Source: Methanothermobacter thermautotrophicus str. Delta H
GTDB lineage: Archaea; Methanobacteriota; Methanobacteria; Methanobacteriales; Methanothermobacteraceae
Direction of reading: 5' to 3'
DNA: 32,000 bases
NCBI RefSeq assembly: GCF_000008645.1
Contig: NC_000916.1
Coordinates: forward strand, 870,001-902,000
Below, piece after piece: positions 6,467 through 12,800 of the stretch. A model generated the notes under the pieces. That model was not told the DNA's origin. It ran no database searches and saw nothing but the letters and a program-made list of their open reading frames with translations. Numbering within the stretch: the stretch's first letter is position 1; every line of letters begins with the position of its first letter. A program made the translations under genes and the position numbers.

Positions 6467-7309
6467 CTACTCTGGCATGGGCTCCAGGTCGGCTCCAGCT
6501 GAGAGGTCCCTCTCCTCCTCGCCGTCGTACTGTATTTCTTCGATTTCGAAGAATTTTCTGAAGGCTGGTTCCCGGACCTTTTCCTCGTAGACGTGGGATA
6601 TGAGTCCTGGGAGGCGTCCTATCATGAATACTCCTGCTCCGGTCCTCCAGTCGAATCCCATGTCTGATAGTATGCCGGCGTTGGCCCCGTCAACGTTCAT
6701 CCGGACTCCCTTGCGTTCCAGGAGTATCTCCTGGACCTCCAGTGCAAGGCTGGTGTGGGGTCCCACGCAGCCGTAATCCTCTGCAAGTTCCAGTAACCTG
6801 ACGGCCCGGGGGTCGGCGTTGTGGTAGCGGTGCCCGAACCCGGGGATCCTCCTGTTGGCCTGGAGGTGATCATCAACCAGCCTCAGGGCAGCATCAGGGA
6901 TCTCATCCTCAGACTCGCAGGATGATACAGTCTCCTGGAAGAGCTTCATGGAACGCTCAATGGCACCCGCATGATTCTTACCAAAGGCAAGCAGACCCCC
7001 GGCAATACAGGCATGAACCGGAGAACCCGCCGAGGCAATCATACGGGCAGCCTGAGTACTCGGCGGAGTAACACCATGATCACAGAAGGACACCAGGACA
7101 GCCTCAAGCATACGCGCAACATTCTGAGGGGGAAGCTCACCCCTGATCAGAAGATAAACCATCTCAGAAAAGGAAACACCACCAATAAGATCCTCCTGAG
7201 AATAACCCCTCGTAACAATACGGTTAGGCTCAACACGCGTAATGGAAGTCCTCCACCTGGGGGAACCCGCCCTGAATACCTGCTCAAGTGATTCCTTTCC
7301 TATAGCCAT
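6467..7309 (-). CDS. Short citrate synthase-family protein (citryl-CoA lyase-like)
   Basis: At 280 aa it is much shorter than a true citrate synthase. It keeps the catalytic-domain signatures ...FGKNHAGA..., ...IPGFGHRYHNADPRA... (the GHR.Y..DPR motif) and ...GRLPGLISHVYEE. Its size and motifs resemble citryl-CoA lyase or the ATP-citrate-lyase C-terminal domain. Confidence 0.7.
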   Translation of the reverse strand: MAIGKESLEQVFRAGSPRWRTSITRVEPNRIVTRGYSQEDLIGGVSFSEMVYLLIRGELPPQNVARMLEAVLVSFCDHGVTPPSTQAARMIASAGSPVHACIAGGLLAFGKNHAGAIERSMKLFQETVSSCESEDEIPDAALRLVDDHLQANRRIPGFGHRYHNADPRAVRLLELAEDYGCVGPHTSLALEVQEILLERKGVRMNVDGANAGILSDMGFDWRTGAGVFMIGRLPGLISHVYEEKVREPAFRKFFEIEEIQYDGEEERDLSAGADLEPMPE

Positions 7310-7318
7310 TCATTCACC

Positions 7319-8194
7319 TCAGAGATCTATTGTTGCCCTTCTGGGTTCCACACAGCATGCAAGCCTCATTGAGACTATCCTCACGCCGCTGGCCCTCTGG
7401 GGTCCCACCTTAATCATGGCCCCCAGGGCTGTCGTGGATCCCCCAAGACCAAGGGGCCCTGTCCCGGTACTGTTAAGGGATTCTGTGATGTGCTCCTCAA
7501 TCCAGGACTGTTCATCAAGATTTCCTGTTGCCATGGCCCTGAGCATAAGGCCAGTGGCCTCAAAATGAGTTCTCCCGATACCTATAGCCGGTATGCATGG
7601 TGTGCACCCCAGCATCGGGACCTCTGTTTTCATCCATGTTATAACTTCCTCAAATACTTTTCTATAACTGTGCCTGTGGAAGATCCTCCTTGTCCTCGCC
7701 CTTATCTCGGGACCCCCTCCAAGCATGAGGACATGGATCCTGACCCCCTCACCGGGCGCCGAATCCACCGTGAAGGGTGCCGGTGGGAGTTTCGCCGGGT
7801 CACTGTACAGTCCCCTGCTCTGCTCTATCCTCTCCACCTCATCACCCCTTACAGCCATTGGGCGTCCCGGGAGTTCCCTGAGGCCCTCCTCAACACCCCT
7901 CTTCAGATGGTTGAAGAATCCTGCAGGGAGGCTGGCGTCCTCCCCCACCTCCACTATCAGGTGGGGTATCCCTGTATCATCGCAGAGTGGTCTTCTCTCC
8001 CTTTCTGCTATGCGGGCGTTTTCAATTAGAAGTTCAAGTATCCATGCGGATCTCTCATCCTCCTCCACCTCAAGGGCCCTCTCGTAGGCCCTGAGGACGT
8101 CGGGGGAGTAGGTTGTGGATGCCTGGATGATGGCATCCCTGACTCTCCCGGCGAGATCCAAGCTATCCTCCCCCCACGGGTACAGCGAGGTCAC
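7319..8194 (-). CDS. Fe-S type hydro-lyase, fumarate hydratase/tartrate dehydratase alpha-domain family (divergent)
   Basis: 291 aa with ...RPLCDDTGIPHL..., ...GCTPCIPAIGIGRT... and ...GPLGLGGSTTAL...ACCVEPR. These correspond to the cluster-binding Cys and the GxGGxTTA motifs of class I fumarase alpha subunits, but the sequence is clearly diverged. The ATG at 8194 overlaps the upstream gene by 32 nt. An in-frame TTG at 8161 would remove the overlap. Confidence 0.7.
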   Translation of the reverse strand: MTSLYPWGEDSLDLAGRVRDAIIQASTTYSPDVLRAYERALEVEEDERSAWILELLIENARIAERERRPLCDDTGIPHLIVEVGEDASLPAGFFNHLKRGVEEGLRELPGRPMAVRGDEVERIEQSRGLYSDPAKLPPAPFTVDSAPGEGVRIHVLMLGGGPEIRARTRRIFHRHSYRKVFEEVITWMKTEVPMLGCTPCIPAIGIGRTHFEATGLMLRAMATGNLDEQSWIEEHITESLNSTGTGPLGLGGSTTALGAMIKVGPQRASGVRIVSMRLACCVEPRRATIDL

Positions 8195-9062
8195 CGCCCT
8201 CAGATAGGACGGCCTCAGGATAGTAGCGCTCTATCATGTCCCTCACAAGGACAACCTGCCTTATCCTCTCACGCGCCTGGGCCTCGGTGGTTTCCCAGCC
8301 ATGGTGCCCGGCCACGGAGCCCCCGGTCTTGAGGTAGACAGGTGCTGCGTACCTTATGATATCCGGGACCTCGTAGTGCCTTATGAATCCGCCTGAGGAC
8401 TTGGGGTTCTCTGTGTGAACATCAATTGAAATGTCGATGGCCTCCCTGAGTGATGCCAGCATTGGTATCTGGAGGTCCCTCACAGGGTTCAGGGAGTCTG
8501 CACCGATATCCTGGAGCAGGTGTGCTGAGGCAGGATTCCCGTGACCGCAGTGGGCTGAGACCTTAAGGTGGAGGTCAGCTGGAAGTTCACCGTCCCCGCG
8601 CATCCTTCCAAGAACCCAGAGGAGGCCCTCATCATAGACCACTATACCCCTGACACCGAGTTCGGCTGCCCTCTTAACGTCCTCAACTGCGTAGACAAGG
8701 TTATCATATCCCCTGAGCCTGTAGCCTATCCTTGCACCCTCGGGGGTCCTTGCGGAGGCACTGGTATCATAGGTGGCCCGTGGCCCTACGCTGAGGAAGA
8801 GTTCAATGTCTGCGTCCCGGGCCATCCCTGCCATTTCCTCAATCTCGGTGTCTGTGAGGAGCATTATGCCACGGGTCTGTGTCACCCTGTGGACCCTGAC
8901 ATCCTGCTGCTCCATTGCATCTATGAGGGCTGCCATGGCACCGGGCCTCTGTATGCCCGGAACCTCAAATCTGTACTGGCCTCCATCACTGAATCTCTTC
9001 TCTGATTCGCCCCTGGGGGCCCCTATTCCAATCTTATTAAGGTATCTGCGGGTTTCTTCCAA
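8163..9062 (-). CDS. Conserved hypothetical protein (299 aa), function unknown
   Basis: Long ORF in the same orientation as its neighbours. TTG start at 9062 is preceded by GGAGGTGA 5 nt upstream. Alternating hydrophobic-strand and helix pattern (..VRGIVVYDEG.., ..ADSLNPV.., ..SIDVHTEN..). I do not recognise the family. Confidence 0.6.
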   Translation of the reverse strand: MEETRRYLNKIGIGAPRGESEKRFSDGGQYRFEVPGIQRPGAMAALIDAMEQQDVRVHRVTQTRGIMLLTDTEIEEMAGMARDADIELFLSVGPRATYDTSASARTPEGARIGYRLRGYDNLVYAVEDVKRAAELGVRGIVVYDEGLLWVLGRMRGDGELPADLHLKVSAHCGHGNPASAHLLQDIGADSLNPVRDLQIPMLASLREAIDISIDVHTENPKSSGGFIRHYEVPDIIRYAAPVYLKTGGSVAGHHGWETTEAQARERIRQVVLVRDMIERYYPEAVLSEGGDLAVPVGGG

Positions 9063-9165
9063 TTTTTCACCTCCAGTTTAACTTTACGCTTGCGGGATTT
9101 CCGGTCGATCAGTTCCAGCATCACCGGGCAGATCCCACCATCACATCACAATTCCACGCAACGGA

Positions 9166-10470
9166 TCACCTGCCAGACAGCTCCAGCATCACCTCAGCAA
9201 CAGGTTCCTGATCCGCCTCTTTTATAACCTCAAGCCTCTCTGTTTCATATCCAGGGTTCAGTTCCCTGAACTTCTCAACAATGTCATCCCAGGTGTAGGG
9301 TTCCTCGGGTTCACCCCGGGGGAGCTCCCTGTAGGCTGTAAGGACATCACCGTTTCTGAGCCTCACCGTCACCCTTGAAGGTCTCATGTTCCGGAGCTCC
9401 TCCATAGCAGGGTCCACCTCAATCCTTATCCGGGAGGCCATCTCTGGGGAAAATCCACCCTCAAGGTCTTCAACCCTCAGCTCTCCCCCCTCAAGCAGTA
9501 TGCCCAGTGAGACCGGGAGGCTCTGCCGCACAGCCTCCACGGTAGCCGGGGAGTAACTGTCATGCTCTGCTGCGATCCTGTAGGTTGAGACTATGACCTC
9601 CTCTATCTCCGATGCCCTGAAATCATTCTCCCTGATTATCTCGGCTGCAGCATCCAGGGTGGAGTGGAGGTGCCTGCAGACAGGGTACCTCTTGAGGTAA
9701 ACGTTCCTTATATGGAAAGCTCCGACTTCGGGTGATTCACCCCCGTAGCCATCTGAACGGCACATTGCACGCAGGAATCCCTCATCTCCCTCGATCACTG
9801 ATTCTGCGCCTGTGAATCCCTGGGAAGCGAGCCTGGCGGATATCAGGCCAGACTGGGCTGCCCTGCCCGCGTGGAGGTGCTTTGCCATCGTCCCGGCATG
9901 GTCAGATTCCAGGAGCCCTGCTGCCTGGGTGCCTGCAATCCCCAGGGCATTGACGACGGCATCCACATCGGAACAGATGATCCTTGAGGCTGCCGCTGCA
10001 GCTCCGAATGTTCCGCAGGTCCCTGTCGTATGGAATCCAAGCTCCCTGTGTCCTGGATTGGCGAGGATGCCCATGAAGATTGCTGCCTCGTATCCGGCGA
10101 CCATGGCTGTTATGAAGTCCCTGAAGGTGGCCCCGGTTGCCTCGGCAGCTGCAAGGGCTGCCGGGATCACACATGAACCAGGGTGCATCTGGGCCCCCCG
10201 GTGTCCATCGTCAAGGTCAAGGTTATGGGCGAATATGCCATTGAGGAGGGCTGCCCTTTCGGTGTCGCCCCTGCCATGGCCGATGATGGTGGCCCCGCCT
10301 GAGCCCTTACCCATGGCCCCCAGTGCCATCAGCCCGCTCATCTCAGAGGAGCCCCTCAGTGCAACTCCAAGGAAGTCCAGGAAGCATAGTCTGGCCATTT
10401 CAGTGGCATCTGGGGGTATGTCACTGTATGAGAGTGATGATACAAACTCCGCAAGTCTTCTGGTCATCAT
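9166..10470 (-). CDS. MmgE/PrpD family protein (2-methylcitrate dehydratase-like fold)
   Basis: N-terminal ...LAEFVSSLSYSDIPPDATEMARLCFLDFLGVALRGS... and ...NLDLDDGH..., ...HPGSCVIPAALAAAE... are hallmark PrpD-family segments. The track ORF starts at 10524, but homologues start near MMTRRLAEF, so I place the start at 10470. That also removes the overlap with tiaS. Confidence 0.85.
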   Translation of the reverse strand: MMTRRLAEFVSSLSYSDIPPDATEMARLCFLDFLGVALRGSSEMSGLMALGAMGKGSGGATIIGHGRGDTERAALLNGIFAHNLDLDDGHRGAQMHPGSCVIPAALAAAEATGATFRDFITAMVAGYEAAIFMGILANPGHRELGFHTTGTCGTFGAAAAASRIICSDVDAVVNALGIAGTQAAGLLESDHAGTMAKHLHAGRAAQSGLISARLASQGFTGAESVIEGDEGFLRAMCRSDGYGGESPEVGAFHIRNVYLKRYPVCRHLHSTLDAAAEIIRENDFRASEIEEVIVSTYRIAAEHDSYSPATVEAVRQSLPVSLGILLEGGELRVEDLEGGFSPEMASRIRIEVDPAMEELRNMRPSRVTVRLRNGDVLTAYRELPRGEPEEPYTWDDIVEKFRELNPGYETERLEVIKEADQEPVAEVMLELSGR

Positions 10471-10508
10471 TGATCCTACTATGTTGCCTTTAAATATAAC
10501 AGTGATTG

Positions 10509-11843
10509 TTATAAATCTTCCCATTTTTTATTAAGGGGGTCTGATTGCCGGGTGCTGCTGCTCTCAGTGGCTTCGGAGGGCGGGGAGCTGATTCCCATCC
10601 TCACGAGCTGCTTTGAGAGGTGCCTTCTGGCACAGGTTGGCACCTCATAGTATCCCTCACCAACTGACCTTTCAAGGGCCCTCCTGACCTTCCTGGAGCT
10701 TCTAAGCCTCCTTCCACAGGATGGGCACTTGAAACCCTTGTTCCTCCCGGCAGACTTCATGCGCTTACCGCAGGTGCAGATGGGGTTTTCCTCAACGTAG
10801 AGCTCTGCAAGCCTTTCGAGGTGGATCTTCTCGATGTTCATGGTCCCCTGGGCACCAATACCCCCGTAGACCGTGAGCACATCTCCGGGTATGAGTTCAA
10901 GGATGATCTTCCTGAAGTCCTTTGTGGGCTCGTAGGCTCCACATTCAATCTGGCCGGAGTCATCACCGAGGGTGAAGAACACATGGCCCCCCTCGATCAC
11001 CCTCGGACCGTCGATAACCTCACCCCGCACCCTGTAGCATCCGAAGGTCTCCATGTCTGCGATCCTCCCGGCGTCCTGTATGTGCTGGTCGGTGTGCTGG
11101 TTGGTCTCAAAGATGCAGTACCTTTCAACCTCCTCGTCAACACGGACCATCTCCATCGCCCTCAGGAGGACCTCCGGGGACTCTCCCCGTATACCGTAGA
11201 GTATGGGGCAGGGTGTGTGGGGTTCTATTGCAATGTAGTCTCCATCGATGTTATCAAAGGTTTCAGAACCGGTTTCATCATCCATCCTTGCAACCGACTC
11301 AGGGTCGATACGCCTGGGCTTACCATAGTTCTCAGGGACCCTGTAGGTCAGGAGTTCATAGGTGGAGTCATCCAGGGGGCATCCAATGGCTGCAAGGGCG
11401 CCTATGATACCCCTCCCCTTCTTGAAACCGTGAACCTCTGCACCGACCCTCTCTGCGAGCCTCCGGGCGTCCTCTATCCTGAGTATCCTCCTTATGGCTG
11501 ACAGGGCGAATTCCCTCATCTCCTCTGTGATCTCGCCGGTGTAGAATACAACGCCCGGGTTGGTCCTCTCACTATCAAGCTCGGCGAGTTCCTCCACCCC
11601 TTCAAGGACAATCCCCTTTACGGTGTTAAGGTCCTCCCTGGACTCTGCCAGCACAGTGAAGGTGACCGCACCGTTGCCACGGGTCTTGTGGGGTGCGAAG
11701 GGGTTGAGCCTTATCAGCCGGGGATGGTCCTCAAGGGAGAAACCGCAACTTTTAAGTTCCTGGATTATGACACATGATATATAGGTGGTGCACATCCCTT
11801 CAGGGGAATCTGTATCATCTATACCAACATGAAGCCTGTACAT
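10509..11843 (-). CDS. tiaS: tRNA(Ile2) 2-agmatinylcytidine synthetase TiaS
   Basis: MYRLHVGIDDTDSPEGMCTTY... is the characteristic TiaS N-terminus. It also has a C-terminal Zn-ribbon (CTCGKRMKSAGRNKGFKCPSCG). The ATG at 11843 has AGGTGA 6 nt upstream. The track's 11891 start adds 16 unlikely residues. Confidence 0.85.
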   Translation of the reverse strand: MYRLHVGIDDTDSPEGMCTTYISCVIIQELKSCGFSLEDHPRLIRLNPFAPHKTRGNGAVTFTVLAESREDLNTVKGIVLEGVEELAELDSERTNPGVVFYTGEITEEMREFALSAIRRILRIEDARRLAERVGAEVHGFKKGRGIIGALAAIGCPLDDSTYELLTYRVPENYGKPRRIDPESVARMDDETGSETFDNIDGDYIAIEPHTPCPILYGIRGESPEVLLRAMEMVRVDEEVERYCIFETNQHTDQHIQDAGRIADMETFGCYRVRGEVIDGPRVIEGGHVFFTLGDDSGQIECGAYEPTKDFRKIILELIPGDVLTVYGGIGAQGTMNIEKIHLERLAELYVEENPICTCGKRMKSAGRNKGFKCPSCGRRLRSSRKVRRALERSVGEGYYEVPTCARRHLSKQLVRMGISSPPSEATESSSTRQSDPLNKKWEDL

Positions 11844-11864
11844 TACATTCACCTGGTGATCTAA

Positions 11865-12800
11865 TTGGATAAATCCATTAAAAGGGAGCATGTATTAAGG
11901 GAGATACATGAACTTCTTGCCAGCAATGGGTTTGAGACATCACACATATATGAGCGGAGCTGCTTTGACCTCATGGCAAGAAGGAAACTATTACTTCTCT
12001 TACTTAAGGTCCTTGTAAACATTGATGGTATAAATAGTTTGCAGGCCCATGAGATAAGAACCCTTGCACATACCTTCCTTGCCTCACCAATTATTGTAGG
12101 TGTGAGGTCAAAGACCGAACCCCTTAAGGAGGATGTTGTCTATGAGAGGCACGGTATCCCGGCAGTGGCCCCTGAGACCTTCAGGAACATGGTGGCTGAT
12201 GGTGAGTACCCTGAGATAATCGCTGACCGGGGCGGCTACTATGTCCATATAGACGGTAAAACCCTCAGGGAGGTCCGTGAGGAGTACAACCTCTCACTTA
12301 AGGACCTGGCTGACCTCGCCCATGTCTCCAGGAAGACCATCTACAAGTATGAGAATGGACTTGCAAGGGCCTCGGCCGAGACAGCCATGATCCTGGAGGA
12401 GATACTTAACATCAGGATAACCCTCTCCATTGACATATTCAGTGTACCCGATAGGGATGAAATTGAGATAAAACCATCAGGTAGACTTGCTGATATCGGT
12501 TTTGGCATGATAGAAACCCACAAAACCCCCTTTGATGCCGTGGCAAAGGAGATCAAGTTTGATAATACGGTGATAACCAACCTTGAGAAGGAGAGGGATT
12601 CAAGGACCCTGCGGAGGATGGCTGTCCCGCTCAAGGATCTTTCCCTTGTAAGTGGCTCCGAGTCAGTGTTCATAATCGATAATCCAAGGATAAATGAAAA
12701 CATTGAGGGAATCCCCGTCATCAAGAGCTGGGAAATCGGTGAAATGGAGAGCAGCAGGGAGTTCCTCAAGGTCATAGCCGAGAGGAAAACCTGCAGTTAG
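11865..12800 (+). CDS. Putative HTH-type (XRE/Cro-like) transcriptional regulator, archaeal ~310-aa family
   Basis: Central ...LREVREEYNLSLKDLADLAHVSRKTIYKYENGLARASAETAMILEEIL... is a classic XRE helix-turn-helix. The N-terminal ...ERSCFDLMARR...LLLKVLVNID... matches the conserved archaeal family I recall from Methanocaldococcus. TTG start at 11865; there is no in-frame ATG nearby. Confidence 0.8.
   Translation: MDKSIKREHVLREIHELLASNGFETSHIYERSCFDLMARRKLLLLLLKVLVNIDGINSLQAHEIRTLAHTFLASPIIVGVRSKTEPLKEDVVYERHGIPAVAPETFRNMVADGEYPEIIADRGGYYVHIDGKTLREVREEYNLSLKDLADLAHVSRKTIYKYENGLARASAETAMILEEILNIRITLSIDIFSVPDRDEIEIKPSGRLADIGFGMIETHKTPFDAVAKEIKFDNTVITNLEKERDSRTLRRMAVPLKDLSLVSGSESVFIIDNPRINENIEGIPVIKSWEIGEMESSREFLKVIAERKTCS

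Follow-up and report, generated by a model that had tools for sequence, protein, structure and literature searches.

The DNA analysed here is a window of 32,000 nucleotides from Methanothermobacter thermautotrophicus Delta H (forward-strand positions 870,001-902,000 of the complete 1,751,377-bp chromosome). It contains a cluster of four minus-strand genes for organic-acid-type enzymes, flanked by tiaS (10509-11891; window coordinates unless stated otherwise) and by A-type ATPase genes. In the direction of reading, the first gene encodes an MmgE/PrpD-family protein (9166-10470; 434 aa, with its ATG start at 10470). It is followed by genes for a protein resembling the Peptidase U32 family in its triosephosphate isomerase (TIM) barrel (8163-9062; 299 aa, TTG start, Shine-Dalgarno sequence GGAGGTGA), for an iron-sulfur (Fe-S) hydro-lyase alpha subunit designated FumA' (7319-8161; about 280 aa, TTG start) and for a citryl-CoA-lyase-family (CCL) aldol enzyme with the citrate-synthase fold (6467-7309; 280 aa). 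The four frames and their Shine-Dalgarno sites had been proposed from the bare sequence in an original prediction, and an open reading frame and sequence check confirmed them together with the intergenic distances of 103, 1 and 9 nt. When the alternative GTG start of fumA' at 8194 is adopted, the 1-nt gap becomes a 32-nt overlap with the barrel gene.

Each of the four proteins could be assigned to a family or fold. The PrpD-like protein matched PF03972 (E 2e-71) and PF19305, its N- and C-terminal domains scoring 240 and 94 bits against a cut-off of 32, which places it in the MmgE/PrpD superfamily. Its nearest solved structures were iminodisuccinate (IDS) epimerase and IRG1/cis-aconitate decarboxylase rather than the E. 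coli-type PrpD, and PrpD equivalog models gave it 18-28 bits against cut-offs of 458-950. The CCL exceeded the cut-offs of NF004866 (517.7 against 245 bits) and NF004869 (267.8 against 212) over its full length. It aligned with the citryl-CoA lyase of Hydrogenobacter (6hxp) at E 1e-64 through residues 19-269, and the His/His/Asp motifs DHG, GFGH and NVD, shared with that enzyme, are all intact. By a strict regular expression, GxGH occurred in 34/34 homologues, DHG in 32/34 and N[VI]DG in 33/34. These matches identify the CCL as a full-length member of the citryl-CoA-lyase family (PRK06224); it had been described as a truncated citrate synthase of citryl-CoA-lyase size, of which the family assignment stands and the truncation does not. 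In contrast to the Hydrogenobacter enzyme, it is encoded in one cluster with FumA', the barrel and PrpD, and no citryl-CoA synthetase is found in the locus.

A second copy of ccl is present on the chromosome at 1,580,109-1,580,855, beside the pst operon and the canonical fumA, and is 99.9% identical over 747 bp (window 6515-7261). In two further genomes (G008 and G011) the two copies are 99.7% identical, with about 85% identity between species, a pattern that points to ongoing gene conversion between the copies. Elsewhere among the genera, the additional ccl is a paralogue of greater age that has diverged.

Concerning the 299-residue protein, which the original prediction had left unrecognised while pointing to its strong Shine-Dalgarno sequence, the latter stands and the protein itself is recognisable as a U32-like TIM barrel from a weak Pfam match combined with a fold search. 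The match to Peptidase_U32 (PF01136) had an E value of 0.004 and 17 bits, below the gathering threshold of 22.4. A predicted model (predicted local distance difference test score 87.8) adopted a TIM barrel with the U32 protein Mk0906 (5d88) as the top Foldseek match, and a structural alignment (VIA Z 15.5, root-mean-square deviation 2.7, 185 aligned) gave a tie with CutC. With Z scores this close, the fold searches on the model give the barrel only a generic TIM-barrel identity, and no function follows from them. A PDB sequence search with the protein gave no match, and one metagenome scan (query P0166) found nothing. The barrel shares the TIM fold with the Peptidase U32 family (Mk0906, TrhP, RlhA, UbiU/V), but lacks the four-Cys Fe-S site of Peptidase U32 and the Fe-S hydroxylases: it holds a single Cys, and no Cys column was conserved at 80% among 56 diverse homologues. 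Its Arg/Lys set is also a different one, the residues conserved in these homologues being E33, R59, R95, D144, K167, S169, D196, D214, R228 and K245. We infer a C-C-forming enzyme that would add pyruvate or phosphoenolpyruvate (PEP).

FumA' matched PF05681 (E 9e-55) and exceeded the TIGR00722 cut-off (119.8 against 100.65), which identifies it as a member of the TtdA/FumA subfamily of Fe-S hydro-lyases. It carries the cysteine motifs CDDTG, GCTPC and CCxEP, with C71, C197 and C280/281 as the Fe-S cysteines. As had been noticed, this is a divergent alpha subunit with CDDTG in place of CQDTG; the variant motif was present in 79/79 FumA' homologues, and identity to canonical FumA proteins was only about 27-29%. 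A beta partner exists. The statement that no beta subunit lies adjacent is right for the cluster, but a dedicated one, fumB', is encoded about 150 kb away as a second Fumerase_C paralogue (chromosome positions about 1,027,480-1,027,998, minus strand). A second Fumerase_C gene was found in 33/33 non-Methanosphaera genomes searched, and 12/12 Methanosphaera genomes have one copy.

We compared this pair with the two-subunit class I fumarases and L-tartrate dehydratases (M. jannaschii 7xky; TtdAB). The alpha and beta folds are shared and the three Fe-S cysteines are equivalently placed, but FumB' carries PT[ST]SNK where canonical FumB has PTTSxRM, and FumA' and FumB' are about 27-30% identical to the genome's own canonical subunits and fall below the equivalog cut-offs (NF004885, 117 against 276, for FumA'). 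In trees FumA' and FumB' each group apart from canonical FumA and FumB at 100/100 support, and each clusters, likewise at 100/100, with paralogues from bacterial gene cassettes described below. A canonical fumarase is therefore ruled out for FumA' by its motifs, its score and its separate clade. The canonical CQDTG fumA and the canonical fumB are separate genes, present everywhere, in agreement with the view that the cluster does not supply the fumarase of the reductive tricarboxylic acid branch; the distant beta subunit belongs to a non-fumarase clade and does not turn FumA' into a bona fide fumarase.

The neighbourhood of fumB' was also examined. In Delta H the order is ppsA-mfnA-fumB', and 21 nt separate fumB' from the preceding mfnA. 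It is co-directional behind mfnA in 14/18 genomes, directly so in 12, and the two genes overlap by 4 nt in Methanothermus; in the remaining 4/18 it adjoins 2-oxoglutarate synthase/succinyl-CoA ligase genes. Methanosphaera retains ppsA-mfnA without fumB'. The Delta H fumB' appears frameshifted, and as relatives and four sequencing runs from two studies have two additional bases, with which the frame is intact, the frameshift is a reference error. The two missing bases, whose omission truncates fumB', lie at L214:5595-5999 (chromosome about 1,027,600). Between ppsA and mfnA (L214:7160-7510) the reference omits single bases at a run of nine more places and has about twelve substitutions, and these errors probably hide the true mfnA start and ppsA end.

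The order prpD-barrel-fumA'-ccl was kept in 80 Methanobacteriales loci as far as the contigs extend (PrpD in 79, FumA' in 79, CCL in 76), and the same order was found in Methanothermus. The barrel gene was present in 138 of 151 Methanobacteria genomes, representing 27 of 28 genera, and in none of 12 Methanosphaera genomes, two of which are complete. In a 39-genome subset, these 12 Methanosphaera had no FumA' and no gene of the citrate-synthase or PrpD family, and retained tiaS and the canonical fumarase. All five genes, those of the cluster and fumB', are thus jointly absent from 12/12 Methanosphaera. One fragmented metagenome-assembled genome (MAG) of another genus (G130) gave no barrel or PrpD match, with the other three genes present. 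The four genes are one conserved, co-inherited organic-acid module. The linkage proposed for them is borne out by the kept order and the joint loss, and is not a chance arrangement of this lineage; together with fumB' they very probably constitute a single five-gene pathway.

As to transcription, a TATA-like AT element lies at 10488-10498 on the minus strand, about 25 nt before the prpD start, and several genera have elements of this type (AAAA-TTTAT) 25-35 nt ahead of prpD. Judged from its position, it is possibly the module's own leaderless promoter. A sigma-70 promoter scan, whose model is not applicable to archaea, stayed at chance level, and RNA runs contain the cluster as contigs only, which cannot show co-transcription. 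The proposal of an operon, possibly continuing from tiaS, survives as a conserved co-inherited unit; a run-on from tiaS is not required, since other genes separate or split tiaS and prpD in many loci and the TATA-like element precedes prpD.

Several variations were observed around the conserved order. Unrelated genes are sometimes inserted in the barrel/fumA', prpD/barrel or fumA'/ccl gaps with the order undisturbed (L007:7058-8164, L009:7059-7946, L112 and L121). Methanobrevibacter loci (L050-L080) have DUF3100 membrane-protein genes, split or fused and sometimes duplicated, between tiaS and prpD, and in 31 Methanobrevibacter loci a nitroreductase gene directly follows ccl. In a single Methanobrevibacter MAG, fumA' and ccl share one 587-aa frame (L072:6836-8599), possibly through an assembly error; a second fusion candidate (G094) resolved into two genes, and the fusion was not used.

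The composition of the module recalls the 2-methylcitrate cycle, in which a citrate-synthase-fold aldol enzyme, an MmgE/PrpD dehydratase, an Fe-S hydratase and a TIM-barrel C-C enzyme follow the same logic. The cluster, however, has a CCL-size enzyme in place of PrpC, a fumarase-type alpha/beta pair in place of aconitase and a U32-like barrel in place of PrpB of the isocitrate lyase family, and is probably anabolic. The methylcitrate cycle, which had already been judged not to match, is ruled out: the PrpD and PrpC/citrate synthase equivalog models fell far below cut-off, and the locus contains neither aconitase nor PrpB. By analogy, the module would work like a methylcitrate or chain-elongation module, yet it belongs to neither. 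Nothing was found in the literature on this gene set, a weak sign of novelty given that most subscription papers lay outside the reach of the search.

The closest barrels found outside the methanogens, 58-63% identical, are encoded in polysaccharide loci of gut bacteria, where DegT and Bac_transf genes are also present. These bacterial cassettes share with the methanogen module an orthologous barrel, FumA' (about 50% identical), FumB' (about 47%) and a PrpD-like gene. Among 35 bacterial loci flanked on either side by 4 kb or more, PrpD was found in 32, FumA' in 33, FumB' in 32 and a PF15617 C-C lyase in 34, one Ruminococcus cassette having an HMGL-like gene in place of the last. CCL was present in 0/35, so that three unrelated folds fill the aldol-enzyme slot across the methanogen cluster and the bacterial cassettes. 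Beyond their glycan setting, the cassettes differ from the methanogen cluster in an added 2-oxoacid-tailoring enzyme and often an ATP-grasp ligase (21/35). Exactly one 2-oxoacid-using module occurred in every cassette: a thiamine diphosphate (ThDP) decarboxylase with an aldo-keto reductase in 27, a D-2-hydroxyacid dehydrogenase in 6 and Ldh_2 in 2. As three mutually exclusive 2-oxoacid enzymes follow the core, it would yield a 2-oxoacid, and the core product is probably a 2-oxo-polycarboxylate. The ThDP enzyme passed the phosphonopyruvate decarboxylase cut-off (414 against 312 bits), a score that suggests a 3-substituted pyruvate. Genes scoring in this way are present in 27/35 cassettes (loci L128-L207; for example L191:6840-7973), and may wrongly be taken for phosphonate markers; the common gene clusters of the glycan cassettes showed no recurrent family of PEP-mutase size.

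More distant barrels, without FumA', accompany aldehyde oxidoreductases, acid dehydratases or tricarboxylate transporters in loci that look catabolic, contexts that fit a reversible aldolase-like role. In Bathyarchaeia and Verstraetearchaeota (L103, L107 and L259) an operon of barrel, creatininase, cupin and aldehyde:ferredoxin oxidoreductase genes, with or without Ldh_2, recurs; a phylum sample of 151 genomes centred on a Bathyarchaeia genome yielded no FumA'. An Enterobacter plasmid (L090:6835-16798) carries a distant barrel homologue in a biosynthetic-looking cluster with phosphotransferase, dehydrogenase, aminotransferase, iron redox enzyme, M14 peptidase and MFS transporter genes.

What might the module produce in Methanobacteria? 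In methanofuran biosynthesis by MfnA-F, the enzymes for the terminal moieties are a recognised gap (PMC8141765; see also PMC3087415). The form MFR-a terminates in a tetracarboxylic acid (PMC6926001), and 1,3,4,6-tetracarboxyhexane forms part of methanofuran and is also among the major solutes of the Marburg strain (PMC1224877). In our best reading, the cluster and fumB' would be an anabolic five-gene module that builds a branched polycarboxylic acid. As its end product in Methanobacteria we tentatively favour, at somewhat less than even likelihood, 1,3,4,6-hexanetetracarboxylate (HTCA), which terminates methanofuran-a/c and also occurs free in Methanothermobacter. In labelling studies HTCA is said to derive from 2-oxoglutarate, two acetates and CO2, and MFR-c reportedly bears a hydroxy-HTCA tail. 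In one plausible order of steps, the CCL-like enzyme would join acetyl-CoA and 2-oxoglutarate into a homocitrate-type tertiary alcohol, and the PrpD-like enzyme with FumA'B' would dehydrate, isomerise and rehydrate aconitate-type intermediates. The Arg-rich U32-like barrel would then add a C3 unit from pyruvate or PEP to give a C10 2-oxo-tetracarboxylate with the HTCA skeleton, which unlinked reductase(s) and a ligase would convert to hydroxy-HTCA or HTCA joined to the glutamate chain. Such a route would agree with the precursor pattern from labelling and with the hydroxylated tail of MFR-c. These steps are conjectural; the families, fold, motifs, co-inheritance and neighbourhood are what was observed. 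In Methanobrevibacter, the missing reductase could be the nitroreductase encoded behind ccl.

None of the five genes belongs to an Mfn family, and the link to methanofuran consists of neighbourhood and phyletic pattern. The adjacency of mfnA and fumB' came to light after the methanofuran idea had been formed. In the phyletic comparison, the citrate-synthase family was absent from the control genome of M. jannaschii, and the PrpD family from those of M. jannaschii and M. acetivorans. The lineages of these two organisms make other methanofuran types. Methanosphaera, which lacks the module, is unable to activate CO2 to the formyl stage (PMC10658910). Of the guesses offered with the original prediction, we have adopted the cofactor side chain as the best reading; the citramalate, tartrate and itaconate options found no specific support.

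On the other hand, a number of points weigh against a methanofuran tail. We had predicted that the mfn core genes would be missing from Methanosphaera as well, and this failed: mfnA, mfnB, an ATP-grasp gene at the mfnD position, mfnF and ftr are retained, so that loss of the module does not track the methanofuran core, and the proposal holds only if Methanosphaera makes a tail-less cofactor or none. The absence from Methanosphaera is one loss event, not twelve, and the genus has lost many other functions too. The mfnA-fumB' adjacency is probably a single evolutionary event as well, and MfnA also serves beta-alanine synthesis. No reductase or ligase gene is present in the cluster. The closest homologues belong to bacterial glycan loci, for which a role in methanofuran is not expected, and their 47-61% identity suggests similar substrates, from which the bacterial orthologues presumably form a different compound; to our knowledge, no HTCA has been found on bacterial glycans. 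It is a more doubtful proposition that the five genes are the HTCA-tail pathway and that the barrel, free of the conserved cysteines, represents a new C-C-forming class, adding pyruvate or PEP, which gut bacteria reuse for a glycan acyl group.

We regard it as possible, though on balance unlikely, that the module makes another small hydroxy- or oxo-polycarboxylate for a Methanobacteria-specific product linked to CO2-reducing growth, or serves as a repair or salvage shunt for tricarboxylate analogues of the aconitate, itaconate, mesaconate or methylcitrate type. All of the enzyme families are generic for hydroxy acids, the PrpD-like protein is nearest to IDS epimerase and IRG1, and distant barrels occur in uptake or catabolic loci (TctCBA with PrpD and DHDPS; TRAP with malic enzyme and FumAB). 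The DUF3100 genes upstream and the nitroreductase gene downstream in Methanobrevibacter point the same way, but no DUF3100 homologue was found in the Delta H genome. Moreover, the module is retained in autotrophs, its nearest homologues (about 60%) sit in biosynthetic loci with ATP-grasp ligases, and the linkage to mfnA would be left unexplained.

It is rather improbable that a surface glycan or glycoprotein of Methanobacteria carries the acid as a decoration, as the gut-bacterial polysaccharide loci with the same barrel, FumA' and FumB' clades and with DegT, Bac_transf and ATP-grasp genes would suggest. With no glycan genes around them, the methanogen genes hold a fixed place between tiaS and the ATPase operon, and their retention in 27 of 28 genera is unlike that of variable surface loci. 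Methanosphaera has no module, yet possesses pseudomurein (PMC10658910).

There is little to recommend a module that makes and extends phosphono- or sulfopyruvate along the lines of phosphonomethylmalate pathways and whose barrel would act in the manner of PEP mutase or ComA. The phosphonopyruvate decarboxylase score of the bacterial ThDP enzyme, and its replacement by lactate-type dehydrogenases in other cassettes, would agree with it. However, the top folds of the barrel were U32 and CutC, with no PepM or ComA among the 50 matches listed, and the ATP-grasp ligase co-occurs with decarboxylase and reductase, which implies a remaining carboxylate. Nor do we know of any phosphono- or sulfo-type compound of this kind from Methanobacteria. 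Slightly less likely still is a supply of Leu and Ile precursors through a citramalate route, the loss of which would explain why M. stadtmanae requires Leu and Ile (PMC10658910); Delta H and Methanosphaera each encode two LeuC-type large subunits, and the canonical route therefore exists separately. The idea that the barrel hydroxylates RNA in the manner of TrhP/RlhA and works with tiaS, the other genes being mere synteny neighbours, appeals to the U32-like fold, the tiaS adjacency and the generally conserved Methanobacteriales synteny, but is largely refuted by the single Cys without a conserved set, the separate canonical U32 genes, the co-loss of five genes while tiaS remains and the co-location of the same core in bacteria without tiaS.

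The cluster and fumB' are a real, conserved and uncharacterised five-gene pathway, built on known folds with non-canonical members. For a stated gap in methanofuran biosynthesis, they provide five co-inherited candidate genes in a model methanogen. Whatever the product, they define a pair of Fe-S hydro-lyase subunits that has gone unstudied and a widespread family of TIM barrels mislabelled as peptidases, and they correct metabolic models in which these genes are annotated as a citrate synthase and a fumarase. As Methanobacteria include the dominant methanogens of the rumen and gut, a pathway specific to this class would be of practical interest.

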